NCBI RefSeq assembly: GCF_004010195.1
Contig: NC_057736.1
Span: 26,885,579-26,949,578, forward strand
DNA: 64,000 bases
DNA from: Chiloscyllium plagiosum
Lineage: Eukaryota
Direction of reading: 5' to 3'
Each line of letters begins with the position of its first letter. Positions within the stretch are counted from its first letter, which is position 1. The position numbers were made by a program, and so were the translations under genes. Of this stretch, positions 521-46,668 are shown piece by piece. The notes below the pieces were generated by a model. That model ran no database searches and had not been told where the DNA came from. It saw only the letters and a list, made by a program, of their open reading frames with translations.

Positions 521-2940
521 CGACCCTTTTTGCCGTAATAATCCATAATGAAATTGCCTCTGGAAATCTGGTGGACACATCCATTATGGTTAGTAAGTAC
601 TGGTTTTCACTTTTAGTTCATGGGAGGGGATCTACACAGTTAATCACAACCCGTGTAAAAGGTTCTTTGAATGCAGGAAAATGGACAACAAAGGTGCTGG
701 TTTTATTCCTGCCTGTGGCTTACCTACTATTTGGCATGTATGACATGTACAGCAAATGTTAACCACATGCTTGCGCATTCTAGGCCAATAGAAATGCCTT
801 TGTACCTTAGCCTGAGCCTTTTGTACACCTAGGTGAACTCCTACAGGTAGTTCATGTGCTACCTGTAACACTTCCTGTCTGAACGCCACTGGTAACACAA
901 TCTGGTGCAGTTCTGCCCATTTCTTTTCTGCACTAACGTGCCATGGTCTCCATTTTCATCTTGGGATTCTATCTTTAAGATAATAACCCTCAGGAATATT
1001 CTCTGACTCCTTTTCTGTGTATGCATCAAAATACATATCTTTAACTGTTTCATCTTTCTGTTGTAAATTCCTTAGCCTTTCTGGACTAAACATGTCTGCC
1101 TGACCCTCTGCCTGTTCAGGTTTTTCCTGCACCATTACATCAAACGGGGCAAACCGGGTGTCCACTAACTGAACCTCAACTCATGTATCTTTCTCTTTAG
1201 TGTTTGCTTCATGCTGTGACTTATGATAATGGGATCTTGTCATTACACAGTCTGGGAAAATTCCAGGGTATTTTTCTTTTAACTCCTCAGTTCCCTTGTC
1301 TTCCTTTGGCTTCTGCACAACAAGGGGTGTCACTCCCACCTTGGATCCCACTAAATCATTCCCAGGAACAAACTGTATTCCTGTAACTGTCACTTTGTCA
1401 ATCACTCCCACTGTTATTTCCTCAGTCTTGAGTTGGCACTCCAACCTGATCTTACATAGGAAAACATTGAATTTCTGTCCATCTATCCCACAAATTACTT
1501 CTCTCTCGGGTAACATGTCAGAAAAAGTGCAAATACGTTCATCACTTATTATTAGAGACTGGTTAGATTCTATATCTCTCAAAATTATAACATCTTTCCC
1601 TTCTCCCCCTGTTCTTTCTGAGTAAACGTTATCCACAGAGGCAAAGTCTTTATAGAGATCAGGCACTAACCCCATACCCAGCCCCTGCCTAGGCTGTGCG
1701 CTCTCCTGCAGCTCCTTAGGGTTTCCTTTACTACTTTCACTAATGCCACTGGCTTAACTTCTTTTACCACATCTTTTCCCACAATGCCTTCCTTTAATGA
1801 CCAGCACTGTGACTTTATATGTCCCACTTTACCACAGTGGAAACATCTGAGGCCTTTCACCTCCTTTCCAACCTCTTGGGCGTCTCTTTTACCAGTGTTC
1901 TCTACTCTTTGTTTTATAGTGTTGAATCTCCCTTTCTCCCAATTTCTATCCCTCACAGGATGAAATTCTTGCCAGAAGCTAAACTTTGCCTTATGCACCA
2001 ATGTATGTCCATTTGCCATCTCTGCTGCTCTTCTCACTTCCTGAACTTTCTGTTCATCCACATGAATTCTTATCATCTCTAGAAGTGAGTTTTTAAAACT
2101 CCTACAACAAAATAAACTCTCTTAGAGCCTGGTTGATCTTATCTATTTTTAAGGCCAGCACCCATCTATCATAATGACTATGTTTAATTCTTTCAAAATC
2201 AACATAAGTCTGTCCTGGTTCCTTCTTTATGTTTCTGAATCACGGTCTATACGCTTCTGGTACCAATTCACAAACACTCAAAATAGCATGTTTGACATCT
2301 TCATAATCTCTTGACCTCCTCATCTGACAGCGCTGCAAATATCTCTGTAGCTCTGCCGACCAGCTTGGTCTAAACTAGCATTACCCACAAGTTCTCTGAC
2401 CATTCCATCTGCCTAGCCAATTTTTCAAATGAAATAAAGAAGGCATTGATATCTTTCTCATCAAAATGTGGCAGTGTTTTAACATATTTGTATATATCAC
2501 TACTTTCTCTCTTCATTCTGTTAACTTGACTTTCCCAACTAGTTGAGGCTTATGCCCAAAACGTCGATTCTCCTGTTCCTTGGATGCTGCCTGACCTGCT
2601 GCGCTTTTCTAGCAACACATTTTCAGCTCTTTCCTAACTAATTTGCAACTTCTGAAGTTCAAATTCTCTCTCCTTTTCTTTCTTTTCTCTCTCTTTTTCT
2701 TCCCTCGCTTTTTGTTCAGCTAAGAACCTTCTCTCTCTTTCCTTTTCCTCTAACATGGCTCTTCTTTCCTTTTATTTATTTTCTAACTCCATTTTCCTCA
2801 ATTGTAATTTAAGTTTTTCTAGTTCTACTGCACTTGTCTGCTTCTCTGCCACAGCTAAGTGACTAACTGCCTTACAAATTCAGCTTTACTTTTGTCTCTG
2901 GTTAAACCCAATTCTAACTTCTTTGCTAATTCTGAAAGTA
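520..2940 (-). mobile_element. Degenerate Ty3/Gypsy LTR retrotransposon of Gmr1 type (gag, zinc knuckle, protease, integrase)
   Basis: CFHCGKVGHIKSQC knuckle; protease-like VIILRD; integrase HHCC (VAHE...VHLG...CHTCQ) and core start (QYLLTIMDVSTRFPEA) directly after the protease; frameshifts and stops present. Confidence 0.85.
2542..2629. mobile_element. Short Penelope-related element
   Basis: GATGCTGCCTGACCTGCTG family sequence; TSD TTTCCCAACTA/TTTCCTAACTA (2531-2541, 2630-2640). Confidence 0.7.
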
Positions 2941-3671
2941 TTACTCTATTTAGATTCAGGACCTTAGTCTCAGAATCACTATGTCACTCTCCACCTTGAT
3001 GAGGAATTCCCCAAAGAGCCTAACACAACTAGATTGCCAATTTTTTTTTCTGATTATACAATACCCGGTCTAGGATGACCTGTTCTCTAGTTGGTTCCTC
3101 AATATATTGATCCAGAATACCATCACATATACAGTATTGTTACTCACTTGATTTTCCCAATCTATATGCAGATGAAAGTCACCCATAATTTCAGACATTC
3201 ATTTATTACAGGCATCTCTGATTTTCCTGTTTAATGCCATTTCCAACATCAGTCCTACAATTTCATGGTCTCTAAACAAACCCCATTAATGTTTTTTTCC
3301 TCTTAGTATTTCACAGCTCTACGTACACAGATTTCACATTGCTGGAGCTTATCCTTCCTGAGTGTTGCATTAAATCCCTCTTTAATCAGCAATGCAACTC
3401 CACTGCCTTTTCCTTTTATCTGTCCTTCTCTGATATTCAGTCCTGCAGCAATACCTTCATAATTCTCATTATACCATGCCTGTTTTCATCTATTTGTGTG
3501 ATTCCTTCATCTTCTTTATTGCAAATTAAATTAAGGCACAAAGCCTTATCCTTTTTAGCATTACTTGTCCCATTCTATTATTTTTTGTTGTATCCCTGTT
3601 TGATCCTGACCGTTAATTTCTAAGCCTATCACTCCTGGAAAATGGCTCAATAAACATCATTGAGTGTTGAG

Positions 3672-3943
3672 TCATAGAGTCACAGAGATGTACAGCATGG
3701 AAACAGACCCTTTGGTCGAACCAGATATCCCAACCCATCTAATCCAACCTGCCAGCACCCGGCCCATATCCCTCCAAACCCTTCCTATTCATATACCCAT
3801 CCAAAACTCTTACATGTTGCAATTGTACCAGCCTCCACCAGTCCCTCTGGCAGCTCATTCCATACCCATACCACCCTCTGCGTGAAAAAGTTGCCCCTTA
3901 GGTCTTTTTTATATCTTTCCCCTCTCACCCTAAACCTATGCCC
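3672..3943 (-). mobile_element. HER1/CR1 LINE 3' fragment
   Basis: Same tail as 11670-12207 and 28283-28636 (CATAGAG...ACAGCATGGAAACAGACCC). Confidence 0.8.
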
Positions 3944-4354
3944 TTGAGTGTTAAATTTACATTTGTTTTGTTAATAAATATGATTTAAACCTCCACTTAG
4001 GCCGTGTTATACTTTGTGTTAGGCTTTTGGTTGATTTTTGAGCGATCGTGAGTGATACTTTTTGCTGGTCTGCCTCAACCCTACTTTTCACATAGGCCCC
4101 ATTATTTCTATTAAGCGGTTTTCTATTAAGCAAGGTTGCTGGAATGTGTTATAGGAGAACGACCTGTTAGATCTGAAGATGCTGGAAATCACACCAAATT
4201 TGTCAACGGCACCATCCTCGAATCTAAAATACATTTTGAGCCTTCGTCGTGTAAACCTCCACCAGGGCTTTTGCTTTTTCTTCTTCTAATGCAAGTTGCA
4301 CTGATTGCTTTTTGAGTTATCAGTTTTTGAGGAAACTGATCAGCATTTTTTAAT

Positions 4355-4542
4355 ACCAAGAGAAAATGCTGGAAAACCTCAGCAGGTGTGGAAGCATCTG
4401 TAAGGAGAGAAAAGAGCTGACGTTTCGAGTCTAACTGACCCTTTGTCAAAGCTCCTTATAGATGCTGCCAGACCTGCTGAGATTTTGCAGCATTTTCTCT
4501 TTTGGTTTCTGATTCCAGTATCCGCAGTAATTTGCTTTTATC
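4355..4542. mobile_element. Short fold-back Penelope-related element with hammerhead-like motif, just upstream of the RPL11 promoter
   Basis: Inverted arms AAATGCTG...CAGCAGGT / ACCTGCTG...CAGCATTT; TSD CAGCATTTT(T/G)TAAT at 4341-4354 and 4543-4556. Confidence 0.75.
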
Positions 4543-4699
4543 CAGCATTTTGTAATGAAGTTTTTGTGAGGGAGATGAGGAGGGTGTATTCTCCTGGCGG
4601 TGGAAAGGGGGCGCTAATCGGTAAGAATGTGATGCTTTGGTTCATGTCCAGGGCGATGCGGGCCCCGGTTTAAACCGTTGCCTTGTCTCCAGCACCAAC

Positions 4700-17707
<13,008 letters not shown>

Positions 17708-20700: not shown

Positions 20701-20751
20701 ATTCAAGACAACTGGAATGATGCCAGTAGTGCCTCTTACTAATTTATACCC

Positions 20752-20941
20752 AACACCAGGTTATAGTCCAACAGGTTTAATTGAAAGCACACTAGCTTTC
20801 GGAGTGCCGCCCCATGAGGTGGTTGAAGGATGAAGGAGCGGCGCTCCGAAAGCTAGTGTGCTTCCAATTAAACCTGTTGGACTATAACCTGGTGATTTTT
20901 AACTTTGTACACCCCAGTCCAACACCGGCATCTTCAAATCA
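20752..20941. mobile_element. Fold-back element (second family) with hammerhead-like motif
   Basis: Inverted arms CACCAGGTTATAGTCCAACAGGTTTAATTG / CAATTAAACCTGTTGGACTATAACCTGGTG; exact TSD TAATTTATACCC at 20740-20751 and 20942-20953. Confidence 0.8.
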
Positions 20942-22306
20942 TAATTTATACCCCTTCTCTACATCGCTAGGCCCTCTGTCTAATTGTTTATCTGTGAGCT
21001 ATTTAACTTGACCCTGTGGTCTAAAGTGTGATGTTTAAACAACTACTTTGAACAAGCTGTTATGTGGGCTGAATAGTCACGTGCCTGACTTAGTGATTTG
21101 TCTCAGTCTTGGGCAGACATATTACAGCTGGAAGACTGTTAGAAGTATTAATTTGCCTCTCGTCCTTCTCCACCTCCTTTTCTATTCTTGTGCATTGTTA
21201 TCCAAACTACTTTTATACCTTGCTGCATTGCCCAGTTGCTACATTTCATTTTAATTTTGCCATGGGACTAAACCTCCAGAACTACATCCCAATTCTTTTT
21301 GCAGTGTGATAAACCAGAGATAAAGGGAAGTTAAATCTCAGGTCTATGACCCTTCCATCTTGTCCTATCGTTTTACTTGCAGACCTATTTCTTTTTTCAT
21401 TTGATAAGTTGTTTTAATTTTTAATCAAGAGAACTTGGATTTGATTTTTGACAACAATTTGAAACAGCAGATTGTTTTAAAATTAAAAAAAATGTGGAAG
21501 GTGAAGACACAAATCCTCACAAATGTGAAAAGAAAATTTCTAATTACAAAATTTTAGTCAAGATCTGAGGTTTATCTACTACAAATTGTTGTTTTCCTTA
21601 AACTTAAGAGTTACAAAATTCCATCATTGCCACTACCCCAAATTTCTACTTACAACCTTCTTCAATTTTGCTAATTTTTTTGGCACTAGGTATTTTCATA
21701 GTCCAAACACTCCCTCTTGTTACTCTCATGGTCACTCCAGTAATCTGAAAATTTTGCTTTTACCTTCATACAGCTAACACTAAAATGTTGATACTTCAAT
21801 GTTTGTCTTTTTAAACCATCTTGATAAGAATCAAAGTTAAAATTGACAACTCATTTGTTAAATTTGTTGGACTTCCACTTCCTACTTTGGTTAATTAACA
21901 AATCAAGATGATTACAGAAGTGGTACCTCAAAAGCTTTTGATAGTTTTTTGGTGAAGTTGTCTCAAGTGTTTAGCAAACCACTTAAGAAGCTTTTAGATG
22001 AGGCACAGCCACCCTTAAGTCAACAGAACATTTCCTTACCTTTTGTGTACAACATTCACTTTATCTCAAGACATGATAGTAAAGGAGAAGAGAGTTGACA
22101 AATTCCTTTACTTATTTTTCAAATGAGAAATGCAATAAAATTGGTGTTTTTAAAGAAGGTATTCTCCATTTTGTTCCTCTTTCAGACTTGTCATGTTGAT
22201 GCAACTTTATTGAATCTGAAGTCTAGAAATATAATTGCTTTCATTCTTCAGAGCATGTCAGATCGTAATAAAATCAATTATATGATAGATAGAAAGTGAC
22301 CATCAC

Positions 22307-22617
22307 GGCAGCACAGTGGCTCAGTGATTAGCACTGCTGTCTCACAGCAGTAGGGTTCCAGGTTCGATTCCAGCCTCTGGCAACTGTCTGTGTGGAGTTT
22401 GCACATTCTCCCTGTGTCTGCATGGGTTTCCTCCAGGTGCTCCGGTTTCCTCCCACAGTCCAAAGATGTGCAGGTCAGGTGAATTGGCCATGCTAAATTG
22501 CCCATAGTGTTAGGTGCATTAGTCAGAGAGAAATGGGTCTGGGTGGGTTACTCTTCAGAGGGGCGGTGTGGACTTGTTGGGCCGAAGGGCCTGTTTCCAC
22601 ACTGTAGGGAATCTAAT
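22307..22617 (+). mobile_element. HE1-type tRNA-derived V-SINE
   Basis: A box TGGCTCAGTG, B box GGTTCGATTCC, V-domain GTGTGGAGTTTGCACATTCTCC...CTCCGGTTTCCTCCCACAGTCCAAAGA, LINE-derived tail. Confidence 0.88.
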
Positions 22618-23021: not shown

Positions 23022-23754
23022 TTAGATACTGATTGCTGCAGACGCCACAGAACTAGCTCTGGACTCTCGAAGTTTGTTGTTGGGCAACAAAATGCTGCAG
23101 CAAGAGACACCCACCGTGGCTTCTGGTAGCTCATCCTCATCAGTCCATTCATTTAGATCTGGATTGTAGACCTGGATGCAGCTCTTGTACTTCTTTGCAC
23201 TTTCATTCCAACCTCCAACTAGATAAATTCTGTCATTCAGGGTTGTTACACCAGCTGTACTTACACCGATTGATAGGGGAGCTACGTAGCTCCATTGCCC
23301 ATTATAAGCATTGTAGCGTTCAACTGTTATCACATCAACCCGCTCACCTTGCGGCCCAAGCTGACTGCCCCCCATCACGTAGCTGTAATCACCAAGAGTG
23401 ACTGCACAGTGCCAACCTCTGGGTGTACTCAAACTAGCATAGTCTTTCCAAGTGTCTGTTGTTGGATCATAGGCACACACTGTACGAGAGTAACCATTGT
23501 TGATATAGCCACCAGTTATCAGGATCTTGCCATCGCTAAGAGCAGAAGCATGGCAGCAGCGGGCAACATCCATCCGAGCCTTCATCTGCCACTGGTTAGT
23601 GGAAGGGATGTAACATTCCATGGACAAAAGAGGACCATCTGAGTTCCGACCACCAATTGCAAAAAGCAAGCCATTGTAAGCGCACATACTGAAATGGGTT
23701 CGCCTCTGAAGCATGCTGGCTAAATGAAACCATGTGTTGAAACGAGGGTCATAT
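23022..23754 (-). CDS. KLHL31-like: KLHL31-like last coding exon (Kelch repeats and C-terminus); full CDS join(26824..25638,23754..23022), 639 aa
   Basis: TTTTCAG|A TAT GAC CCT CGT (RYDPRFNTW...) in phase with the previous exon; [12 protein letters not shown]...[12 protein letters not shown]...[11 protein letters not shown]. Confidence 0.93.
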
Positions 23755-23959
23755 CTGAAAAATACAATGATTTTTTAAAATATACCTTTCAGATATGAAA
23801 AGATCACATCAAGGAGATGATTTCATAGGTTTGTCATTTAATATGAATTGCTTGTTGAAAAGCTGAAGATTCATCTATTCTACCATCCACAAGTCAGATT
23901 ATAAAGTGGAATTATTGATTAATCATAGCAGTTGATCTATTAGTCAAAAAATGACAACA

Positions 23960-24620: not shown

Positions 24621-25637
24621 TCAATTGATGAAATATTTGATCCAGAGAGAGATTTAAGATTTATATTAGTTCCTAAATGGTTGCTTCCATCTCCTTAAAT
24701 TTTGCAGTCAATCCCACTACAAATGTCAAAGCTAAAACTGAGAGCTCTTCACTCCTCCCCTGGTCCACAGCTATTTGAATTTTAGGTTGAAGTTCACAAT
24801 ATTGTAAAATAATTCAGTTTGTATTAACGCCTGAGTACAACCAAGAAAAAACTAATTGGTTTCAGTTTCTGCAAATGCAAAACAGTTCAGCTGACTGCAA
24901 AAGGACAGCAGGAAATTTCTGGGATTAATTAGGAACGTTTGAAAAATTCTGAAAAGACCTAGAAGGTTAGTATTTGTTTCAGTTAGTAGTAAAATTCTCT
25001 GGCATGTACTGAGGATATGAAAAGCACAGGTAAACCCCAATTCTATCATACTTTAAATCTAAAATACAATGTCAATATATTGTGACAGACACTACCAAGT
25101 GTCTGGTGTACTTAGCATCATAACTGTAATGAGATGGTATCAGGCCTGTGAAGGTATGCTAAATTTAAAGGAAACACAAGTTGTTAAGGCATCTCTTGCA
25201 AATGAACAAATCTGAGTAAGGCATTATAAAATAGTAATAACTGGATAATCTTTAGTTAGTTTAGAACAGGGCGTGTTAATACTGCCATCTTTTTAGAATC
25301 TTCTAATAGATTTTAAAGTTGCCTTACCACAGCTTTAATAACCAGTTTTGATTTGAGTTATAAATATCAGTTCTACAGTGTATAAATTCTGCTGCGAATT
25401 TGATTGTACACTATCACAATAATGACAATGCTTCAGAAGTATAATTGGTGCTGAAGGGTTTTTGGATGTCCCATGGAAATTATAGGCACTAAATTGGGCA
25501 AGTTTCTTTCTTTAAAAACTAGAACATGTCCCTCGGAAGAAAGAAAAGCCTTAAATAGTTCACAGATTTTGTTTTTATCCTGAGTTTGAAATAGTCAAAC
25601 ACTTAGCATGTCCAACAGAACAATTAACTTACGTTAC

Positions 25638-26824
25638 CTGTTTAAACTGCTGACAGCGTGTTTAGCTTGGTTTCTGGCATCATTCTGATCCTCACCACCA
25701 GCAACATATAAAAAGCCATCCATCACAACTACACATTGATTGAAGCTTTTGGCCGGCATTTCCGCAAGTTTGTTCCATCCATTTTCAGGATCTCTGTATA
25801 AAATATCTCTACTCAAAGCCTTCTCAGTCAAAGCTGGTCGACCACCTACGGTTAGCAGAACCTTCTGTCCTCCCCTGAGCTTTGTTCTTCTTGATTGCAT
25901 TGAGTTCTGTTGATGAGGCAGGAGGTGATAGTTCATGGCATTAACCAGGAGTCGATGGCAATCTGGATCTTGCATCATGCATGGGATAGGTTGAACATAA
26001 CTGACTAGATCATGAGCTGAAATGGTACCAAATCTTATATTACTCAACAGGTCAGCTGCATGCTTCACCCTTTTGGAATCAAACTGCAACCATTTCATAG
26101 CAATTTGAAATGCAGTGAGCTCAGAGGGCAGTTGCAGGCTGTCATCCATCAACAAATCACTTATTTGGTCATATGTCAGTTTCATGAACTGATCATTTTC
26201 TGAAAACTCCAAGAAATTTTCACGGATGAATTTCTTTGCTGACTCTTTCACCTGATTTAATCCATATGTCCCAGCAATATTTGAGATGTACATACAGTTT
26301 TCCACATTAATTTCTTGGATGAGGAAGTCAGTGCACATATTGATCAAGGTACACATTTGAAACTGGGTGGCAGTGGCAATGGTGCATCCAATGGTATAAA
26401 GAGACAAGCTGAGTCTCCCTGTGTAGGCATAGGTTATCACAGTGGTCAAACCCAAAGGTGAAACATCATTAACATCAACACATTGAATTGAAGGATCTTT
26501 TTTCAACATGTTACGGAAATAATCACTACACGCAGCCATCACCACTTTATGGACATCAAAGGATTTATTTTTAGTGGATAGTGTAAGATCAGAGAACAGT
26601 CTCTCCTGGCGCATCCTGCTGATTTCCTCCAAAAGGATATTGCCATGATTAGGATTGGAGACTTCTGTGGCTGTGCATCGAAACCCATTTGATCCACTAT
26701 CATAGAGTGTGTTAAGGTGGTTCAACTGATCGATGTCAATAGTTGTGTCCTCAACAATGCTTATTTTTGGTAATTCATTCTTTTCCGTCTTGTTTTTCTT
26801 TGTGCTTTTCTTCTTTGGTGCCAT
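25638..26824 (-). CDS. KLHL31-like: Kelch-like protein 31 family (KLHL31-like, likely paralog), first coding exon: BTB, BACK and start of Kelch repeats
   Basis: MAPKKK...[29 protein letters not shown]...GGRPALTEK...[37 protein letters not shown] closely resembles KLHL31. Acceptor TTTTTAG at 26851 upstream of the ATG; donor AG|GTAACG at 25637. Confidence 0.93.
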
Positions 26825-27380
26825 TGTGTGTTTTATAGACACAACCCAATCTAAAAAGTAGAAATGTAACAATGTTCATTATTTCATATTTCTATTACCC
26901 CCAACAAAAGCTTGAAAATAACTTAGTGTAAACTAGTCTTGATTTTTTTTCTGAATTGAAATCCCTGCTAATCAAAATTAAGATTTTATTAGATATTGGA
27001 ATTACACACTTGGATACTTGCGTAGTTAAAATTTAGCTCTACAGTTCTACAAATTTCTACACATATCAAAAAGGACCACATCTTTTTGATAATGAATTCT
27101 GAAAAACATGAAGATTCATAACTTCTCTTGCAATACATTTTGTTCACCTTTCTGTTTATTGTAAAATAACTTATCAGTCAGTTTGTGTTTGGTTGCACTA
27201 TGTAGTAGTTACTCAATTGCTTTAGACAGATCAAATCAACATTTGCGTTTTGATATGCTAACAAGATGTGTAACATGGCATTATTAATATGGAGTTAGCT
27301 ATCGGCTACATTTATATTGGCCAACCAGAAGTCACCAAATGTTTAATCAAGAACAGCAAAAATATAAACACAAATTACTC

Positions 27381-27486
27381 ATCTTGATATACCACATCCT
27401 AAATATTGTATACAATCTTGATATACCACATCCTAAATATTGTATACAATCTTGACATACCACATCCTAAATATTGTATACAATCT
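27381..27486. repeat. Minisatellite, 3 x 34 bp (ATCTTGATATACCACATCCTAAATATTGTATACA)
   Basis: Three near-identical tandem units, one substitution. Confidence 0.95.
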
Positions 27487-28282
27487 GGCCATTGAGGCAG
27501 CTAGAAACAATGTTTAAGGCATAAAGTAAATCTTTGGTGTTAAATGTATGAATTGTGAGGAAAAGCGAGAAGTTTGGACTTTAGCACCTTCAAAGAAGCA
27601 ACTCTGACAATCTTTAAAAAATAGATTAGATAGAGAAGTGGTCCAGAAAATGTTGAATCTCAAATTATTTCAGTCTAAATTAATTTCAAATGCCGGGCAA
27701 AGTTTGAACAAATGATAATCACAAATTGTAATGGGAATTCTACATGAAAAAGCTGAAGTAATGTATTGGAAGTACTGAAGAAACAAAATACTGGAAGCAC
27801 TGAAGAAGCAATTGGCCGAACAATAGAAGGACCACAGGAACATTCTGCTTGGACAATATAAATGGGGTGAATGCACTTTTTGGTCTGTATCTAACTTATA
27901 AAAGTTTAGCAAAATTAATGTTAAAAAGCCGAATGTAAAATATTCCAAAATTTAAACTAAGAGTTTCAGATTTCTTCTAATCACTATTGAGAGTTTGATG
28001 TCATGGGCCTGGCAGGCCCAGCTGCTGTTTCTTCTATTAAAAGATTGCTATTTTGAGATTAACTACTCCAGCACCTGTGATCCCTCATAAGAAAGCAATT
28101 TGTGCATTTTGACTGCTACTTTTTAGGTGATACAGATTTGGAAGATTTAGGTGGGAAAATTTGTTGATGTTCTCACTTTTTATATTTGTTCACAGGACAG
28201 GGCTTTACTGACTTGGTCAGCATTTCTTGCCCATTCCTAATTTCCCTTGAGAAGGAAGTGGTGAGCTGCTTTCTTGAACTTA

Positions 28283-28636
28283 GGAGTTTATAAAATCATG
28301 AGGGGCATGGATAGGATAAATAGACAAGGTCTTTGGGGTGGGGTAGTCCAGAACTAGAGGGCATAAGTTTAGGATGAGAGGGGAAAGATGTAAAAAGGTC
28401 CTAAAGGTAATCTTTTTACACAGAGGGTAGTGCATGTATGGAATGAGCTGCCAGGGGAAGATGGTACAATTACAGCATTTAAAAGGCATCTGGACGAGTA
28501 TGTGAATAGTAAGGGTTTAGAGGGATATGGGCCAAGTGCTGATAAATGGTACTAGATTAGGTTAGGATATCTGGTCAGCATGGACGAGTTGGACCGAAGG
28601 GTCTGTTTCCATGCTGTACATCTCTATGACTCTATG
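28283..28636 (+). mobile_element. HER1/CR1 LINE 3' fragment
   Basis: AAAATCATGAGGGGCATGGATAGG...TTGGACCGAAGGGTCTGTTTCC tail. Confidence 0.85.
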
Positions 28637-29239: not shown

Positions 29240-30175
29240 AGTCTTCTGTGGCTATCCCCCTCTCCAACAAGTATGCTGTTTTGGAAAATGTAGGGGTTAA
29301 TAGATTCTCAGGGGAATGTAGCATGAACAGCCAAGTGTCTAGTATCATGACAGGCTGTAATGTAATGAGGGGCACGTTGGGTTCCAAGTGATCAATTGTG
29401 TTAGGGGACTCTCTAGTCAGAGGCACAGACAGACATTTCTGCGGCCAGCAACTGCCTCCCTGGTGCCAGGATCAAGGATGTTTCAGAAAGGGTGGAGTAT
29501 GCTCTCGAAGGGGAGAGGGACCAGCAGGAGGTCATTGTACATATTGGAACCAACAACATGGTTTCTTTTATTGGTCAGAGCATTGAGTATAGGAGTTGGG
29601 AGGTCAAGTTGCAGTTGTACATTATGTTGGTTAGGCCACTTTTGGAATTTTACGTGCAATTCTGGTCTCCTCTCTATCGGAAGGATGCTGTGAATCTTGA
29701 AAGGGTTCAGAAAATATTTACAAGGATATTGCCAGGGTTGGAGAATTTGAGGTGTAGGGTGAGGCCAAATAGGCTGGGGCTGTTTTCCCTGGAGCTTTGG
29801 AAGCTGAGGGGTGACCTTAGAGGTTTTATAAAATCATGAAGGGCATGGATAGGATAAATAGACAAAGTCTTTTCCCTGGGGTGTGGGAGGCCAGAACTAG
29901 AGGGCATTGGTTTAGGGTGATAAGGGAAAGATATAAAAGAGACCTAAGTGGCAACATTTTCACGCAGAGGGTGGTGTGTATGGAATGAGCTGCCAGAGGA
30001 AATGGTTGAGGCTGGCACAATTGCAATATTTAAAAGGGTATATGAATAGGAAGGGTTTAGAGGGATATGGGCCAAGTGCTGGCAAATGGGACTTGATTAG
30101 ATTGGGATATCTGATTGGCCTGGACAAGTTGGACCGAAGGGTCTCCTTCTGTGTTGTACATCTCTATGGCTCTCT
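29240..30175 (+). mobile_element. Internally deleted HER1/CR1 LINE (ORF1 esterase fused to ORF2 end)
   Basis: LGDSLVRG...VIVHIGTNN (SGNH esterase) joined directly to LVRPLLEFYVQFWSP and the 3' tail. Confidence 0.8.
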
Positions 30176-30219
30176 ATTCCATTACACCTCTGTCTTATGT
30201 TTTGTTGATGGTTGACAGG

Positions 30220-30438
30220 CTTTGGGGTTCAAAGTTTGGGAGAAGATTTGTAGCTCGGGTGCTCGTTGTTGTGGTTCTGTTCGCCGAGCTGGGAATTTGT
30301 GTTGCAGACGTTTTGTCCCCTGTCTAGGTGACATCCTCAGTGCTTGGGATCCTCCTGTGAAACGCTTCTGTGATGTTTCCTCCGGCATTTATAGTGATTT
30401 GTACCTGCCGCTTCCGGTTGTCAGTTCCAGCTGTCCAC
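30220..30438 (-). mobile_element. Penelope pseudo-LTR (same family as 8898-9073)
   Basis: Sequence shared with 8898-9060 and with inverted 10175-10285. Confidence 0.75.
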
Positions 30439-30605: not shown

Positions 30606-30609
30606 ACAA

Positions 30610-32540
30610 CAAGCTTTGGGGAATCACAAGGTGAATTATTCACTTCAGAATTCCTGGCCTCTAATCTGATGTTGTAGTCAATGCTTATATAACTGGTCCA
30701 GTTCAGTTCCTGGTCAATGATGTCCCTCAAGTTGTTGATAATGGAGGATTCCATGATGATAATGCCATTGTATGTCAGGAGAGTTGGTTAGATTCTCTTG
30801 TTTTAGAGATGTTCATTTTCTGCTACTTGTATTATTTGCCACTTATCAATCAAAGCCTCAAAATTGTCTATATCTTGCTGCTTATCAACATTGACTACTT
30901 CAATAAATGAGAACTCATGAATTATGCTGAACATTGCACAATCAGCAGCAATGATCCCCACTTCAGAACTTAAGATGGAGGAAGGTCATTTAGGAAACAG
31001 CTGAAAATGATTTTTTCAAGGACATTACCTTGAACAACACCTGGTCCAAAGCTGAGACGAATGTTCTCTAACAAACACAACCATCTTCCTTTGTGTAAGG
31101 TATGACTCCAACTAGAAGAGTTTTTTCCTGATGTCCATAGACTTCAGTTGTGTGGGGGCCCCTAGATGCTATACTCAGTTAAATGTTGTCTTTATGTCAA
31201 TAGCAGTCACTTTCATTTCAGCCCTGGACTTCAGCCCTTCATTCTTGTTTGTAGCAAGACTGTAATGAGGTCAGGAGTTGACCAGCTTTGGTGTAATGTT
31301 ATTTACTAAATGCCACTTGAAAGCACTAGTTGTAACCCTTTCCATTGCTTTTCTGATGATCAACAGTAGGCTGGTGTGCCAGTAATTCGCTGGCTTGGAT
31401 TTGTCCTGTTTTTTGGTCACAAGAAGTACCTGAGGAATTTTTTTCTGTTGTCAAGTGGGTGCTGGTGTTGTAACAGTACTGGGCCATGGATAATTCTAGT
31501 GCACTAATCTTCAGTACTATTGCTGGCATATTGTTAGACTGCATGGACTTTGAAGTACCAAATACCATGAACCCCAATTTGATACCATGTGAAGTGAATC
31601 GAATTGGCTGAAGACTGGCATCTGTGATGCTGGGAATCTCTATGAAGCCAACTTGGATCATTGCTCAGCAGGTCTAGCAGCATCTGTGAAGAAAAATCAA
31701 AGTTAATGTTTTGGGTCTGGTGATCCTTCCTCAGAATCCCGGAGCCGAATATTAACTTTGATTTCTCTGCACGAATGCTGCCAGACCTGCTGAGCTTTTC
31801 CAGCAACTTCTGTTTTTATTTCTGATTAACAGCATCCGCAGTTCTTTTGGTTTTGACTTGGATCATTACTGGGCTCCTCTTCTAGAAGATGGTCGCAAAT
31901 GCTTCTGTATTGTTCTGGACCCCCCCCCCCCCCCATCATCAAAAACAAGCATAATTCTGGAGCCTTCTCCTCTTAGTTAGCTGCTTAATTGTCCACCACC
32001 AGTCATGGATGGATGTGACAGGACTGCAGAGTTTGGAGCTGATCCATGCTCAGTCTATCACGCTACTTATCATGCTTGACATGTAAGTAGTCCAGTTTTG
32101 TAGCTTCACATGATTCATACCCCATTTTTTGATATCCATGGTGCTGCTCCTGGCTTGTTCTCTTGCACTCTATATTGAAATACAGATTTTCCCCCGCCCC
32201 CAGTAATAGTAAAGGGTGGATATGCCAGACAATGAGGTTGCAGAGGAGAGTTAAATACAATTCTGCTTGTGCTCATGGCTGAAAGCATCTCATGCATGCT
32301 TAGTTTTCAGTTCTAAATCTGTTCAAAATCTATCTCATTTAGTGCAGTGATCACTGCCACACAACAGAGTCAAGGGTATTCTCCATGTAAAGGTGGGTCA
32401 TCATTGCCACAGGCTGTGTGGTGGTCACTCCTATCAACATTATCATGGACATATGCGTCAGTGACAAGTACACTGGTGAGGATAGTACCATGGCAGTCTA
32501 GGTGATGGATGGTGAAGACCCCCATCCACAGTACACTCTG
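30610..32540 (-). mobile_element. Degenerate CR1/L2-like LINE (same family as 62885-64000), with a short fold-back insertion at 31663-31855
   Basis: Shares sequence with 63480-63960; the insertion has exact TSD ACTTGGATCATT at 31651-31662 and 31856-31867. Confidence 0.7.
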
Positions 32541-33120: not shown

Positions 33121-35234
33121 AAAGGATCAACTCCTCCTTTGCCCCCTCTGATTTTCAACCCTTCCTCATTTTAGCAATATAGTTAATGTATATGAATATT
33201 GAAGCCAAAGGATGATCTTGTTATTGCAACAATGTTAGAATGACTAATGCGGTGGGCAAAATCAAGAGCAACAGTAACTCACCAATGCTTCTACAAATGC
33301 ACATTCCAAACCCCAAACTCTATCACCAAGAGGGATAAAGGGCAGCAGATATATATGGGAACACCAGCAACTACAAGTTCCTGTCCAAGTCACGTACCAT
33401 CCTGGCTTGGAATAATACTGTGGGTTATTTACTGTAGTTAAGTCAAAACCGTGGTATTCCAATTCTAACAATATTGCATGTCTCCCGACACCCCAAAGAT
33501 TCCAGCAGTTCAAAAAATGCAGAGCTGGCAATAAATGTTGGCCTTGCTCATAATTTCGCTTTGAAATATATTAGGAAGTGTTACAGAAAATGTTTAATCT
33601 TGAACATTATTTCAATTTAAATCAACTCGAAAATGTCGAGAACATTCACACAAACAATAATTACAAACTGTACTGGAATTCTAGTTGAAACAGTAGAAAC
33701 AAAATATTGGAAATACTGAATAGACCATAGAAACCTTCTGCTTAGATGGCAGAAATAGTATTCACTTTCTGGTCTGTTATTTATTTGTAATTAATTAACA
33801 AAACTACTGTTAAAAAGACAATTATAAATTATTCCAACATTTATAGTAGATAAATCCTATATCCCATGGACGACTCGAAAAAAGCGATCCCTAAGCCTGA
33901 AATGCAGTATCTCTTCAAGCGATCTCTAAGCCTGATCCCCCCTCCAGTTTTCCAAAATCCGCAATATTTTGTTTTTATTTAACAAGTTGGAGGTTGGTGA
34001 AAAGTTACATTCACACTACACTGTACCCAAAGCAGAGCTTTTTAAAGTCTTATGTCGGAAATGTTTCTATATTAAAGATCGCTCCACTTCATCATCCTAA
34101 ACGTGTTTGAACTTTGAACTTGCTCTCAATCACATCTGTTCGCAAGGTTAGCTATGCACATATATCACCCTGGTTTCTGAATCTGCGAGATCCCCTCAAA
34201 GACAGATCTATTTTTGAGGTTGGAAACCCAAAATTCAACCTTGGCGAGTTAGCCAAATCTCTAAAACGTGCTACAGGTGATTGGAGAGCGGAATTAACCC
34301 TAGCGAGTTAATGTAGAATTAAAAAGTGTATAGTAATGAAGACCTGATTTGAGTGAGAGCAGTTGAAAATTTCTCCCGGGAGAAAAGACGCTAGCATAGT
34401 GCCATGACAGACCACCAGAACCATATGATGTATATTATTCCAGCTCACAGGTTGGTTAACAAAATACCCCATAAGAACTCAGTGGAAAAGTGGAAGTTAA
34501 GATTTGCTTTTGTGTTGTTTTTAAAGGATGCTACCTTACAGGTTTTTGAGAATGGCCGGATCTTTATAAAGCTGACCACGCTGGTTTTCTTTGGGTCCTG
34601 ATTAAAATAGAAGAGTAAAAATACCAAGAGGGCGCATTTCATTCCAACCAACCCTATAAATATTCACATGTCGTCAAGCGAAATGCGCGAATATGGAAGG
34701 AACCGCAGGGGGACAGCTACCAAAGCAGCCCCTTCCTAGGAAATGCACCGAGTTCCACTCTGAGGTCGGAGCGGTTTCCATGTTTAGTTCGAGTTTTTTA
34801 AAAAAAACACCAGCCGAAACCTTAAACGCATTTCAATCATTTTAAAAATAAATAACAAAAGACAAATATTCACAAAGTCTTGCTAGTACGTTAATAAAAG
34901 CCGGTGTTTCATTTATATTTGTCGCTCGGTTTAGTATTGTACTGCATTTTAAACTGGTACGTGTATGTCATAGACAGTCGTGTGAATCAAGCGTCAGGTG
35001 TCCTGGGATCTGTCGATCTATGATGTGGATATTTCTAATCAACCTGTTCAAAGATGTTATTACACCGGTGCGGGAGGACCTAAGCCTGGGCTTGCTGACT
35101 CAGAGGTAGAGACACTACCACTGCACTACAAGAGTTTACTTTCGGGACATCCACATTCACAACAGGTGGCTCAAGGAGTCGAATGGAAAATGACTGGGAC
35201 CTAAAGGGAAATAAAATACTACCTCAGAAAAAAA

Positions 35235-35835
35235 ACCCGAAAAAACTGCAGATGCTGAAAGTCGGACACAAAAACAGTTATTGCTGGAAAAGCTCAGCAG
35301 GTCTGGCAGCATCTGCGGAAAGTAATTAGTTACCGTTTTGGGTCCAGTGACCCTCAGCTCGGAATACGTCTCATTCTCGGCGAGAACCACATACTATAGC
35401 TTGCTCTCTGATGAATGTGACAATGGAAAATTCCACTTTTCCCTTGAAAAGATTGTTTTTACCCCCGCGCCCTAATCTGCACTTCAGGAATCTCAGCACT
35501 TCAACACAGAGAGACATCAGCCCAGTGCGTGCAAGCTGCATTAATCCCGACCTGAACAAAACAGGCTGTTATGAGCCAGGGAAATGTCATATTTCCACAA
35601 CTTCTAAAAAAAAGTTGGAACAGACACTGAATGCTGGAGGAACTCAGCGGGTCAGGCAGCATCTATAGGGAGAGAAATTGACTTAACATTTCGATTCTCG
35701 TCCAGAATTGTTCAGAACAGGTATCATTTTGCACACGTTAATGGTGTCTCTCTACCAAGATGCTGCCTGACCTGCTGAGATTTTCCAGCAATTTCTGTGT
35801 TTGATTCCGATTTCCAGCATCTGGAGTATTTTGCT
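35235..35835. mobile_element. Two short Penelope-related elements (about 35235-35365 and 35620-35835)
   Basis: CTCAGCAGGTCTGGCAGCATC / GATGCTGCCTGACCTGCTGAG family arms. Confidence 0.65.
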
Positions 35836-37879
35836 TTTATTTAAAAAGTTGGAGCTGGGTGAAGATACATTCACGCTACACTGCACCCATAGTAGAGATT
35901 TTTTTTTAAAAAGTCTAATGTTAGAAATGTTTCTATATTATAAATTACTCCACTTCATAATCCCAAATATATTTAAACTTACTCCTATTCACATATGTCC
36001 GCAAGGTTAACAGTGGACAGTTATTAGCCTAACGTCCTGACCGGCTGAAGGTGAAACAAGGGTATGTCATTTCATTGAGCTCTCATTTCTGGGAGGCTAT
36101 CCGTCCGTCATGTGGCTATCGCAGCTGCTCGGATAGTTACTAAGGTATTCTAGGACAGAAATAGCAACACCCTGTCGTAGCCTGGGTTGTTTATCGAACG
36201 CCGGGGCCATTTTTAAAATCGTTCATTTTGCAGTCGACAACAGAATAAAGATCGCAAACGAATGGACGAAGCGGAATCGACAAACAAATTATAGTAACAG
36301 AGAGCACCGTTGTAGTTGGAAATCAATTACACGCGGTCAAAAATTGTGACCGCGTGTAATTTACCCCGATTCAGAAGCACACTCTCGCCTGTTAAAGCTG
36401 GAAACAATATTCTGAACCATCAAAACCACTGAACAGGCATTGAGTAGTCTCGGGTGCAATTTCAAGTTCTAACAGCGAGGAATCAGAGTCGATTCCAAAA
36501 TCAAACTTTTGGGAAAACAAACCCCCACACCGACTATTGCTTAACAACATTTCAAAACAATTGGTACCACTTCAGGAATTCGTTCGACGGATTGTTCTGC
36601 TTTGATTTAAAATAAATATTCCCACCGCCCGCCAATGTTAAATTTGAACATTCAGCTGAAAACGCCTGGTTACATTTTTACTCAGCATTAATCAACATTT
36701 GGAAATTAGGACCACAATCCTCCTCCGTCTACAAACAAGAGCGAACTTCACTTGGTAATACATCGCGAAGTGAATCGCAGCATTGCTCGGTGTGGAGGTT
36801 CCACCTCCCCTCCATCTCCCCTTTCTAGTCTCTGAATGTTGTACCTTATTTGATGGAACTCGCTGAGAGTTGGTTTCAGGAGAGAACTGTGGCTTCGTGC
36901 GGAGGACTTGGATCAGCAGCCAGCTTCTGAGAGCTGGAGAACGAGACTGTCTGAAACAACACACAGGAACTGACGTCTCCAACCCGACCCAGTAGCTGGG
37001 GGTGGGTTGTGGTAGCCTGGAGAACCATCCAAACAGGCACAGAAACAGACCATTCACCCCGAAGGATCCAATGATCCACATGTCTTGTCTCCACCCAATT
37101 CAGAAGCGTCCGAACACCGTTCACTCTCATGTCACACAAGGAATGTATTCAGGAGAGGAAGGGAATTTTTATCAGTCGAAGAACACTTTTTATTTTGTAC
37201 TCGCATTGTTTCAGGCTATGGGTTGAATTGAACCATTCTTCCAACTTAAAATCTCATTTCAGAAAAAGATAGAGAAACTCAGCAGGACTGCCAGCATCTG
37301 TAGTGAGAGAAACACAGTTAACATTTTAAACCCAATATGACTCCAGAGGAAAAGTTTCTGTAGCACTGTTTTTATTTCAGAATTCCAGCATCAGCAGTGC
37401 TTTATGTTTAACTGTCTAATTTTATTGTTCAGGAGATTTTTGTTGCTTGTCACTTGAAACTTTTCTTGTCTCTACCAGCAGTTAGCTTGTTTAGAACAGT
37501 TATATGCTAATAACTATCGGTCATTCAACCTTTCAAAAAAAGTAGATTGTATCATTTAAGGTAATTCAACTGGTTGACTGATCTACTAATATCCCCTGTA
37601 AGAAACAAACTATACATTTACTGCAAAGTAAATCTATAGCTCACAATACAAGACCTAATTTCTGCTGAGTAAAATGGTGTGTGGTAGCATGGTGATTATG
37701 TTCCTGATGTGGTAATTCAGAGGGTAGGACCATTAATTTGAAGACATAACAATTGCACAAGTTCTATCAATTGGTTCACTAATATCCTTTTGGGAAAGAA
37801 ATCTTCTGCCCTTACCTGATTGGGCCTATGCAGCATTTCACACCTTGGGGCTTGTTTGTAAGTTCTGGCAATGAGACAC

Positions 37880-38140
37880 TCTGCCAAATGCCCTTGGCAG
37901 GCTGAAAACAAAAATTGTTGGAAATCACAGCGGGTCAGGCAGCATTCGTGAAGAAAGAGCAAGCTAATGTTTCAAGTCTAGATGACAGTCCATCAGAGAC
38001 TCTTCATCATGATGAACAGTCACCTAGAATTAAAATGTTAGCTTGTTCTCTCTCTATGGCTGCCTGACTGATCCACCGTGATTTCCACCTTTTTAACTCC
38101 ATTTGCAGCAAAGACTCCAGCATCTGCAGTAATTTGCTCC
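37880..38140. mobile_element. Short fold-back Penelope-related element
   Basis: Inverted arms GGAAATCAC..GGTCAGGCAGC / GCTGCC...GTGATTTCC. Confidence 0.65.
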
Positions 38141-38149
38141 ACCTTTGGT

Positions 38150-40560: not shown

Positions 40561-40567
40561 AAAAGGG

Positions 40568-41344: not shown

Positions 41345-41657
41345 GATTAGATTCCTTACAGTATGGAAACAGGCCCTTTGGCCCAACAAGTCCACACTGA
41401 CCCTCCGAAGAGTAACCCACCTAGACCCATTTCCCTCTGCCTAATGCACCTAACACTATGGGCAATTTAGCATGGCCAATTCACCTGACCTTCACATCTT
41501 TGGACTGGGGGAGGAAACCGGAGCACCCGGAGGAAACCCACACAGACATGGGGAGAATGTGCAAACTCCACACAGACAGTCGTCCGAGGCTGGAATCGAA
41601 CCTGGGACCCTGGTGCTGTGAGGCAGCAGCACTAACCACTGAGCCACTGTGTCCTCC
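41345..41657 (-). mobile_element. HE1-type V-SINE
   Basis: Reverse complement of the 22307-22617 element. Confidence 0.88.
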
Positions 41658-42489
41658 CAGGGACACACACCAAGAAAAACAACTGAGCCTGGTGGACCAT
41701 CAAGTCCTTTACATCTATCTGAAACTTACTGGTCTTCCATTGCATAGAATTGTCCTTGACCAAGGATATATGCAGACTGGCACATTCCAAGGTACAGGAT
41801 TATATGAGGTTTGCAGTAAAGCATGGGCGGCCATTGCAGAGATAGAATGGGGATAGGTAATTGTCAATTGCATTTCAGCCATTGTACAACGGGGCCTGAA
41901 AACTGTAGATGGCTTGAGCTGTGTGTTTTATGAAGAATGCACTTTGTAAAACAAAAGGATTGAAAATACATTGAAGTGCTGTGTGATTATACAGGAAGAG
42001 TTTACATCTTCTGCATTTCATGTAACTTCCAAGTTGAGTTGTTTTCATCACTGGGCTGTATACCTGACATTGATTGCATTTTATAAATATTAAATCAATT
42101 ATATTCATATTGAGTGGAACAAGCTGCATGGGGATAAGTTGAGTATTATTACAAATTTTCCAAGGTTCAAGTTGAAATGTTTTGGTATCATTTTTACAAA
42201 TGTTAGGAATAAAGTATATTTTTGGAGAAAAATGTGATTCCAGTCTGTAATAATGACATTGGCTCTGAACTTGCCTAGAAAATCACTCAGTTGTCAAGAG
42301 GTGACCCTTCATAATCTTCTCAATGATGATTTGGAATGGGAAATAAATGCTGACTTTACCAGTGGCTCCTACATCCTGTGAATAAATTCTTTAAAAATGG
42401 TCACAGATCAATCAATGTTAACTGTTGTTAGATGACATGCCAATAATGTTACTGGCAAGGCCAAGACTTCTTTTTCTTTAAAGTTTATG

Positions 42490-42518
42490 CACACACACAC
42501 ACACACAGACACACACAC
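42490..42518. repeat. (CA)n microsatellite
   Basis: CACACA... with one interruption. Confidence 0.9.
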
Positions 42519-44616: not shown

Positions 44617-44925
44617 AGGAGGTGATGGCCCAGTGGCATTGTCACTGCTCTGTTAATCCAGCAACCCAGGTAAAGTTCTGGGGATCCAGGTTCGAATCTC
44701 GCCAGATGGTGGAATTTGAACTCAGTAGACATCTGGAACCAGGAGTTTAATGATGACCACAATACCACTGTTGGAAAAACCTATGTGGTACCTTTAGGGA
44801 AGGAAACTGCTGGCCTACCTGTGTGTGCAGACACAAGGTTGACTCTTAAATGCAATGGCAATTAGTGATAGACAATAAACGCTGACCTCGCTAGTGATGC
44901 TCTTATCCTGTGAATGAACTTTTAA
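44617..44925 (+). mobile_element. tRNA-derived SINE (family of 40568-40920)
   Basis: TGGCCCAGTGG, GGTTCGAATC and the shared tail. Confidence 0.75.
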
Positions 44926-45779
44926 AAATGATAACCAGACTGAAAACACAGAGGCAGTGGAAGGGCCAAGAGAAATGGTGGTGAAAAAGTACTGGGTATT
45001 GTCAATGTACACATGAATCAGACACCTTGTCTGTGCATGATATTGATAAGGGGCAGTTTGTAGATGAAAATCTATGGAAGTTGAGGATAAATTCTTGGGG
45101 AAGGTGACTGATGCAGAAGCAGGAAGAGAGGCCATTACAGAAATGCACTGGTCATTTTCTAATCAACCTGCGCAGAGATGTTATTACACTGCTCTGGAGC
45201 AGGTGGGACTTAATCATAGACCTCCTGATTCAGAGGTAGGCATACAACCACAAGAGTCTTTGTGCGCTAGTTATAACTGAATAAGAAAGAATGGAAGCAC
45301 TTGGACCATGGAGCAGTGTTAGCAGATCATGGTTACAGTCACAGAGAATGCGATTTATTACTTTGATTAAGGGGATTGCAGTGCTGAAGCGGTGACAATC
45401 TAATTGGAAATATTCATTCAGAAAGGCAGATTTATAGGATGACAACATGCCATCTTGGGAGAGAATGGGAGAACTTGGAAGAAGAAAGGAAGATTAGAGT
45501 TGGGCGATTTGTAAAGAGGGGAACAGTGGATGTTTTGATGAGGGGTATAATGAGAATACAAATGCGATTTAAAAAGATGGGGGAAATAGTATCTGAGGAA
45601 AGGGAAACTCTACAATATCAAATGTCTTTTAATTATTCCCCTGGTCTTTTGATTTATGTTTTTGTACTTTTTGTTGAAGAAACTTAACTGTCTTTGCAGG
45701 CTTTGTTTCTTGGCTAGATATGTCTCTTATTGGCAGTAGAAAAACAGGAAAACAACACATACGGACCAAATATTGAACT

Positions 45780-46668
45780 GCAGAAGTAATCACCCCAACA
45801 TCCACAAATGAACCTGCATCAGAACATTACTCCAATGAGCCACCACATACTGCAGCACAGAGGAACTACGCAGAGCAGAGAAAAATCACCTATACAGTGT
45901 ATTAAAAAAGAACGGGTACCCAATGAACACAGTCTACCGATTTTCCAGCAACAAACCCAAACAAGCATACAAAATGCATCCAGAAACCCTAGCTACTCTT
46001 TCTTTCATCAAAGACATCTCTGAAATGAATGCCAGACTACTCAGATCCCTTGGCATCATGGGAGCCCACAAACCCAACAACACACTAAAACAGCAGCTAA
46101 TGAACTTGAAAGACCCTATACAGACAACAAGCAAAACTAATGTTATTTACAAAATATCATGCAAGGACTGTAACAAACAGTACATTGGTCAAACAGGCAG
46201 AAAACTAGCCAGGATACATGAACATCAACTAGCCACAAAACGAAATGACCCTCTCTCACTAGTATCCTTATGTACAGATGAGGAAGGACACCACTTCGAC
46301 TGGGACAACACATTCATCCTAGGACAACCAGAGACACACACGAGAATTCCTAGAAGCATGGCATTCCAACCAGAACTCTATTAAGAAACACATCGAGTTA
46401 GACCCCATTTGCCACCCCACTGAGAAAAAGAACAGGAAATGACATCACCACATGAAATGATGTCATCATAGGAAATGACATCACCAACCCAAAGAAACCC
46501 AAACATATAATTAGAAAGTAGGAATTATCAACAGTGCCTCGCCTGGAGGCTCACTGAAGGTGTTACCTAGTAGGGTGTTGAAATGTCAGGAAATGAACCT
46601 TCCAGCTCAGCGACCAAACCTACATCCAGAACCTCAACCTGAGCTACAAATTTTCTCAAAGCTCACTA
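45780..46668 (+). mobile_element. Penelope-like element 3' part with GIY-YIG endonuclease and pseudo-LTR
   Basis: NVIYKISCKDCNKQYIGQTGRKLARIHEH (GIY-YIG); pLTR with hammerhead-like motif at 46552-46590. Confidence 0.88.

Follow-up and report, generated by a model that had tools for sequence, protein, structure and literature searches.

Short fold-back repeats of the shark Chiloscyllium plagiosum are probably strong-stop copies of Penelope-like element ends

A 64,000-nucleotide stretch of Chiloscyllium plagiosum contig NC_057736.1 (positions 26,885,579 to 26,949,578; hereafter the window) carries short elements with hammerhead ribozyme motifs, several of which are head-to-head fold-backs. A self-comparison of the window separated the elements into four groups, labeled A, B, C, and D. 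Judged by their sequences, the short families A, B, and C are the terminal 100 to 135 nt of protein-coding Neptune-type Penelope-like elements (PLEs), not separate non-autonomous retrozymes, and family D is probably the end of a Poseidon-type PLE. Our main conclusion, to which we assign a probability of roughly two-thirds, is that the fold-backs are PLE ends inserted as abortive "strong-stop" copies after the reverse transcriptase (RT) had run off the predicted 5' end of the mRNA.

Fold-back anatomy and the 5' edge of the arms

In the 3.56-Gb genome, family searches with the window copies covered 30 loci each and were biased toward the shape of the query; unbiased counts were obtained from 24 arbitrary 50-kb blocks on 24 contigs, comprising 1,141,196 non-N bases. 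This sample contained 221 A, 98 B, 78 C, and 37 D arms, and the units made up approximately 3.8% of its DNA. Scaled up to the genome, the short fold-backs are estimated at ~128,000 for A, ~41,000 for B, and ~50,000 for C, or 220,000 altogether.

Target-site duplications (TSDs) were found at 31/44 A, 7/13 B, and 11/22 C directly joined head-to-head pairs of the genome sample, compared with 1/132, 2/39, and 2/66 random controls, respectively (together 5/237). An earlier note on the window, made from sequence alone, had claimed at least six copies with TSDs of 11 to 15 bp; we found eight such short elements, with 0 to 2 mismatches, and a ninth duplication (14 bp) around a Neptune-type fragment at 9074–10049. 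The 3' ends were bimodal in all four families, with the two classes 35 to 40 nt apart, and exactly one arm was tailed in 74/83 directly joined pairs (40/41, 6/6, and 11/11 of the TSD-checked pairs). The A junctions were distinct in 41/41 cases, with 17 overlaps, 5 blunt joints, and 19 joints with inserted bases. Arm lengths were coupled, the two arms being short or long together (44/5/9 observed versus 37/18/2 expected). The tail-less arm extended at least 10 nt further 5' in 22/70 pairs, so that in these pairs neither arm is contained in the other. As a separate observation, the junctions at window positions 6256–6269 and in two other loci (L005 and L224) contain short repeats of the 5' end of the arm itself and look like templated end-joining insertions.

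The 5' ends of the arms piled up at the edge of the hammerhead. In family A, 107/221 arms ended between −10 and +4 from C3, a density of 0.061 per nt compared with 0.005 per nt on either side (approximately 13-fold), and in family C 27/78 ended at the hammerhead edge, with 0.038 per nt compared with 0.005 to 0.009. For B1, searched with a query starting at U3 (n = 35), 22 arms ended exactly at −4, 6 passed the TATA box, and 7 ended elsewhere; the B1 edge is thus a single base, 30 nt behind the TATA box. A TATA-like box was found at −35/−37 in A (62 motif matches at −34 to −37 among 79 long copies), at −34 to −37 in B, and at −38 to −40 in C (23 matches among 31), and the C pile-up is displaced upstream by the same few bases as its box. 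Three other sequencing runs, one of them RNA, also have a loose end at the B1 edge base (15 reads, 73 and 36 contigs), alongside both 3' ends, and an A copy showed a depth step at the place matching the B1 edge. In addition, 7/68 promoter-less B1 arms began at −4 joined to interior parts of the element they belong to, and joints returning to this base recurred in other sequencing runs; such fusions are the expected outcome if the RT jumps after running off the RNA end. We infer that the first base of the B1 hammerhead at 4415–4453 (−) corresponds to the transcription start.

Other explanations of the edge were also considered. A splice-acceptor reading of the B1 edge, which has a T-run followed by AG, was rejected because the arms retain the AG and have no common upstream exon. 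The hammerhead cut site left no footprint in the arm ends, with 4 seen and ~7 expected in A, and none seen and ~3 expected in C. B1 junctions at the cut site were set aside as such a footprint because their set is query-biased and a 4-nt self-complementary stem I explains them equally well; among the partners in a less biased set, none at the cut site was prominent.

Several observations weigh against this account of the edge. A poly(A) single-cell RNA run contained units on both strands, but neither the starts nor the ends of its reads piled up. In family D, whose TATA box is at −53, only 1/37 arms ended at −30 to −15 and no pile-up was seen. The A box is non-canonical (TTTAT), with offsets of 23 to 39 nt in the reference-extended subset, and the old-B pile-up is confounded because just 11 upstream references were available. 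Of the 107 piled-up A arms, an inverted partner lies within 30 nt of 58, and 14 of the remaining 49 are TSD-flanked, leaving 35 without an independent boundary check. The jump-like fusions come partly from RT-selected loci, and their frequency in A was 1/225 arms, against an incomplete A library. Finally, the promoter of Drosophila virilis Penelope is internal and TATA-less, with a start well upstream of the hammerhead (PMC2377424, PMC4209133; here and below, cited papers are represented by the accessible parts of their texts).

Coding parents and the hammerhead motif

Long copies of A, B1, old B, and C run upstream into PLE 3' untranslated region (UTR) and a GIY-YIG or RT frame. The A unit terminates a Neptune-type open reading frame (ORF) with an RT catalytic motif, a CxxxxCxxC linker, and a GIY-YIG domain (locus L207), and the relatives of this ORF are RT plus GIY-YIG proteins of ~890 amino acids. 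B1 units lie ~400 nt behind the end of a GIY-YIG ORF that is related to that of A (loci L305, L309, L313, and L317). RT and GIY-YIG were both seen for A (L207) and B1 (L317 and L313); the long copies of C and old B reached the endonuclease end, tracing back to GIY-YIG C-termini. A CX2-5CxxC linker between RT and endonuclease is present in A and B1, and the placement with Neptune, assigned from the linker motif and the domain order, is accordingly provisional. For family D, a partial ORF at window positions 45839–46384 and other loci fit the arrangement expected of a Poseidon-type element, in which the end of a GIY-YIG ORF lacking the linker zinc finger would be followed by a hammerhead-bearing pseudo-long terminal repeat (pLTR); this assignment is tentative.

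Near full-length copies carry the unit in front of the ORF as well. In a B1 copy represented by L343 and L320, 3' UTR sequence is followed by a TATA box at 119, the unit from 149, the tail, and an ORF ATG at 320, the ORF beginning 35 nt past the unit and tail; two A copies have a homologous ORF start located after the tail. Long coding copies thus end in the unit, which in near full-length copies additionally lies between the TATA-like box and the ORF start. Hammerhead-bearing pLTRs arising from a partial tandem were seen in L343 with L320 and in L326.

All seven hammerhead motifs that the earlier note quoted are present in the window where it placed them. Its proposal that one motif is common to all the elements holds at the level of families and fails for several single copies: the element at 7490–7615 is without any hammerhead, the CUGANGA box is absent from 2545–2628, 16787–16963, and 35620–35842, and a single strict intact motif, 4415–4453, was found in the window. 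The UUGACAA core of this motif is not a lesion but the usual variant of its family, as U3–A8 replaces C3–G8 throughout B1; the same variant had earlier been seen in Schistosoma (PMC4209133). Since the window has just this one intact copy, a loose scan of the window for core and stem II is unspecific (10 matches, the majority outside any element), and an Rfam scan of the window gave 9 weak matches with no hammerhead family among them, the case for the motif rests on family-level evidence.

At that level, a strict minimal-hammerhead descriptor gave 52 matches in the sampled bases and none in each of 12 Markov controls, and the intact motifs in the examined loci all lay within the four families; natural intact copies outside the window include L327:2723–2758, L033:1538–1574, and L093:1592–1633. 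Of 14 subfamily consensuses with at least three members, 11 parsed as stem I, core, extra base, stem II, GAAA, short stem III, and NUH, that is, as minimal type-I hammerheads, and stem III was palindromic in 10 of these 11. Covariation was scored on 12 hand-picked copies of A, B1, and D (C was left out), chosen for intactness, which favors a positive result: 6/9 pairs changed on both sides, and the score, which covers stems I and II and the C3–G8 pair, was 0.609 compared with at most 0.186 for slid controls. The CpG decay that the earlier note had suspected was confirmed. All families have a CpG at the C11.1–G12 step, and inserted copies show its decay, with CG/CA/TG in 110/32/28 of 178 A arms. 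Non-CpG change in inserted copies was 0.011 to 0.049 in the hammerhead core and 0.027 to 0.089 elsewhere, a difference that was not used as evidence of selection because it is confounded by mixed subfamilies. The general claim of PLE-linked, retro-inserted, TSD-flanked sequences with minimal type-I hammerheads is therefore supported. The hammerhead appears to be conserved in the source elements, and the copied RNAs seem mostly not to have been cut there.

Folding predictions were less informative. A hammerhead dimer was formable but was never the lowest-energy form, most A monomers favored another hairpin, and a single B1 unit folded no more stably than shuffled sequences (z −0.82). A fold-back transcript, in contrast, was predicted to form one long hairpin (z −12.1 and −10.3), in which the hammerhead of the A copy was buried. 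These energies neither support nor refute hammerhead activity, which is itself a prediction. Three side observations concern these structures. Downstream of the cut site in all four families, the tail is predicted to pair with the body, so that the second RT start would lie within the loop or close to it, but the stem is weak (z −1.2 to −1.8); the loop in family D is AC-rich, like that of the Anolis element. Four of the top five Rfam matches were microRNA (miRNA) models lying on fold-backs, and the fold-backs at 16827–16967, 6223–6302, and 4366–4493, with sub-threshold matches to miRNA precursors, could be mis-annotated as miRNAs or feed double-stranded RNA pathways. B1-related arms at L230:1440–1570 and L238:1440–1570 have a UUGAUGA core (U3 with G8); their upstream flank is common to both, and they may be a duplication.

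Proposed mechanism and competing explanations

In the mechanism that we favor, the transcript would begin with the first base of hammerhead stem I or a few bases upstream of it, which would make the unit the 5' UTR. The RT would start inside the RNA at two sites 35 to 40 nt apart, on DNA nicked in both strands. Internal two-site starting, two-strand extension, and an uncut RNA template have been shown for the Anolis element (PMC11167929), whose two internal starts are matched by the two 3' end classes found here. Each of the two target ends, ~14 bp apart, would be primed at a different one of these sites within a single RNA region, and the two cDNAs would usually run off the RNA 5' end. Head-to-head end-joining of the cDNA 3' ends would then leave a unique junction, a TSD, and one tail. 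Longer copies would result from a start in the downstream pLTR or from a template jump from the 5' end. The short copies lack the TATA box, are CpG-decayed, and show no sign of self-copying, and they are likely dead.

A broader scheme, which is attractive but which we would not expect to hold, is that Neptune PLEs follow a retrovirus-like cycle of strong-stop and strand transfer primed on chromosomal nicks, the fold-backs being failed jumps. The mRNA would begin at hammerhead stem I and the RT 100 to 135 nt inside, so that a full copy would need a jump to the far RNA end; the downstream hammerhead, dimer-paired with the 5' one, would cut the far RNA end and hold it. If true, such a cycle would give PLE hammerheads a role and bring pLTRs, inverted copies, and the one-sided tail under a single scheme.

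The pile-up could also be explained, with the same source elements and no transcription start, by a barrier that sheds the RT when it copies from the downstream pLTR, such as a pyrimidine-rich tract or a structure 5' of the hammerhead. We consider this unlikely. A C/T-rich or T-run tract does lie immediately upstream of the stop in all three families, heavy 5' truncation is usual for PLEs (PMC8557442), and an RNA start was not seen in the poly(A) single-cell run in which it was looked for. However, a structural stall would be expected 3' of the stems, whereas the stops occur after the entire hammerhead has been copied. Their position follows the TATA box, at 30 nt in B1 and with the upstream shift in C, rather than the stems, and arms extending beyond the site fall back to the background rate.

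Another possibility, to which we give little credence, is that a single cDNA snaps back near its 3' end and copies itself, after which the endonuclease trims one end and takes the tail. This would fit the coupled arm lengths (Spearman 0.68 for 9 long pairs), the overlaps among the A junctions, and the repeated joining of B1 arms at the self-complementary stem I, where 22/26 hammerhead arms of a query-biased set end at −4 and many partners start at the cut site; Craig et al. also ascribe the tail to endonuclease resolution (PMC8557442). By contrast, the 22/70 pairs in which each arm has sequence absent from the other would require a later deletion if they came from one snapped-back cDNA. The arms also have few rare variants in common (10 shared and 196 unshared in A), with no excess that would indicate arm-to-arm conversion, and both borders of the tail are priming sites for the Anolis enzyme in vitro (PMC11167929).

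The earlier note had read the elements as a diversified system of non-autonomous, retrozyme-like families mobilized by PLE proteins, and we find self-propagation of this kind very improbable. Short A copies do outnumber long ones about threefold, the units carry the ribozyme and the RT start region and are found in RNA, and internal RT starts would make copy-containing host transcripts usable templates; PLE-pLTR-derived non-LTR retrozymes have moreover been reported, among other hosts in one chondrichthyan (bioRxiv 10.64898/2026.07.22.740005). On the other hand, long coding copies exist for every common subtype, short and long forms both occur in each of the six commonest A subtypes, and junctions are never shared. 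Few same-strand tandems occur within 300 nt (3, 1, 2, and 2 for A, B, C, and D in the first 12 blocks and the window), the A and C arms do not begin at the cleavage site, and the hammerhead is buried in the predicted long hairpin of the fold-back transcript. Short-only lineages, if rare, are compatible with a sample of 1.14 Mb.

That the fold-backs are long palindromes with centers deleted after insertion or collapsed in assembly can practically be dismissed: long perfect palindromes are unstable, and N gaps lie at some palindrome centers, but TSD-flanked solo arms end at the same place (14/49) and the one-base B1 edge recurs in contigs of other runs.

Window inventory and comparison with known systems

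Table 1. PLE-derived elements of the window. Coordinates are window positions; the last two rows lie beyond the range of the earlier note.
Element	Position	Strand	TSD	Details
Family A solo arm	2545–2628	+	2530–2544 / 2629–2643	5'-truncated within hammerhead stem II; tail-less
Family B1 fold-back	4355–4542		4341–4354 / 4543–4556	Hammerhead arm 4355–4453 (−, tail-less); tailed arm 4452–4542 (+, begins 42 nt beyond U3)
Minimal type-I hammerhead	4415–4453	−		Within the B1 fold-back; sole intact one of the window; U3–A8 core variant
Family A fold-back	6126–6321		6111–6125 / 6322–6336	Tailed arm 6126–6255 (−, G12 decayed to A); short arm 6270–6321 (+); stem II duplicated at junction
Family C fold-back	7490–7615		7476–7489 / 7616–7629	Both arms truncated 3' of hammerhead; ribozyme gone
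Poseidon-type (family D) ends, decayed inverted pair	8897–10282			8897–9073 (−) and 10050–10282 (+); decayed hammerhead in each; Neptune insertion in between
Neptune-type PLE fragment	9074–10049	−	9060–9073 / 10050–10063	Internally deleted; RT thumb coding piece, C-rich 3' UTR, family A unit (hammerhead 9130–9165); tail-less; N gap 9293–9572
Family A fold-back	16787–16963		16773–16786 / 16964–16977	Joined within hammerhead; CUGANGA box absent
Family C fold-back	20752–20941		20740–20751 / 20942–20953	Tailed + arm begins in CUGANGA box; − arm extends to the putative start site
Poseidon-type (family D) 3' end, young	30226–30438	−		TATA box, hammerhead 30304–30343 (G12 decayed), tail; enters N gap
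Old family B fold-back	31666–31855		31651–31665 / 31856–31870	Decayed hammerhead 31700–31735 (−)
Old family B solo arm	35228–35354	−	Looked for, none found	Tailed; truncated within hammerhead
Old family B fold-back	35620–35842		35609–35619 / 35843–35853	Decayed
Old family B fold-back remnant	37261–37409		Looked for, none found	Decayed
B-related fold-back, other subfamily	37902–38138		Looked for, none found	Decayed
Poseidon-type PLE, 5'-truncated	45839–46674	+		Endonuclease-coding 45839–46384, then pLTR with decayed hammerhead 46552–46590 and tail
A-like arm	54702–54771	−		Decayed
B-like arm	59782–59862	+		Decayed

The window also holds features unrelated to these families. Two large exons of a BTB-BACK-Kelch gene, which we take to be KLHL31, lie at 25634–26875 (−) and 23022–23774 (−). 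Broken coding pieces resembling a long terminal repeat retroelement, one with a zinc knuckle, occupy 418–2121 (−), and repeated fragments similar to long interspersed nuclear elements are found at 52024–53290, 11668–12210, 28214–28636, 29565–30173, and 63404–63987, with one weak RVT_1 match. An abundant repeat resembling a short interspersed nuclear element has 306-bp copies in opposite orientation at 22312–22617 and 41346–41651 (92% alike). A tandem repeat with a 34-bp period and three near-perfect copies lies at 27381–27486, and a lone 37-bp palindrome outside every family is found at 36325–36361.

Endonuclease-positive (EN+) PLEs of the Neptune and Penelope/Poseidon types, as described in PMC8557442, resemble the present elements in their single ORF of RT and C-terminal GIY-YIG, the pLTR hammerhead, strong 5' truncation, the zinc-finger-like linker (here in A and B1), the adjacent inverted copy, and a tail of 30 to 40 bp at one end. 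The commonest product here differs in being 130 to 230 bp long, double-ended, and non-coding, with a 5' end fixed behind a TATA-like box, and such a fixed end is not described in the accessible text of that paper. PAc, a Poseidon element of Anolis carolinensis, has two tail-bounding RT starts inside the RNA downstream of the hammerhead, and both DNA strands are nicked and extended on an uncut RNA template (Frangieh et al. 2024, PMC11167929); its ORF begins within the hammerhead, whereas that of the B1 copy begins 35 nt after the tail. The accessible part of the PAc study maps no transcription start and contains no discussion of fold-backs.

Published minimal hammerheads (PMC4209133) share with those described here the pLTR location, the many dispersed motifs, close opposite-strand pairs, the U3–A8 variant, the core boxes, the extra base before stem II, the G10.1–C11.1 pair, and the palindromic stem III. 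The load of intact-looking hammerheads in this genome, estimated at near 160,000, compares with ~4,000 in coelacanth and ~9,000 in Xenopus, although the descriptors differ; no shark is named in the accessible text of the published survey. Non-LTR retrozymes (PMC7229834; bioRxiv 10.64898/2026.07.22.740005) are likewise non-coding and hammerhead-bearing, with kinship to PLE pLTRs and long TSDs, but they are head-to-tail tandems that yield circular RNAs of 170 to 400 nt. The elements here are instead paired head to head or solitary, carry the ribozyme at their 5' end, and have direct coding parents; head-to-tail tandem units are rare among them, the A and C arm ends show no excess at the cleavage site, and the sample revealed no non-coding lineage of their own.

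In the open literature, we found no paper on shark PLE hammerheads or a strong-stop pile-up, although Repbase, Dfam, or subscription journals may catalogue the families, and none that links fold-back 5' ends to a start site, although the supplements of bioRxiv 10.64898/2026.07.22.740005 may list shark units. The completion of PLE insertion and the role of the hammerhead have been called open questions (PMC8557442, PMC11167929). The fold-back ends turn into base-level predictions of a transcription start, two RT starts, and a one-of-each rule, with which the PLE replication cycle becomes testable, and ~200,000 or more copies likely record how PLEs copy themselves. The units also give the genome a very large hammerhead load, and their many long hairpins could feed double-stranded RNA pathways or mimic miRNA precursors.

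Two familiar processes come closest to the proposed mechanism. In the formation of minus-strand strong-stop DNA by LTR retroelements, the cDNA is begun inside the RNA and soon runs off its 5' end, and in LINE-1 twin priming two primings take place, from both target strands. In the scheme proposed here, nicked chromosomal DNA rather than a tRNA would act as the primer, and both primings would copy the same RNA segment. The class of feature is itself known; what is new is the quantitative signature of a 5' end fixed behind a TATA box, one tail per pair, and apparent jumps from that end.

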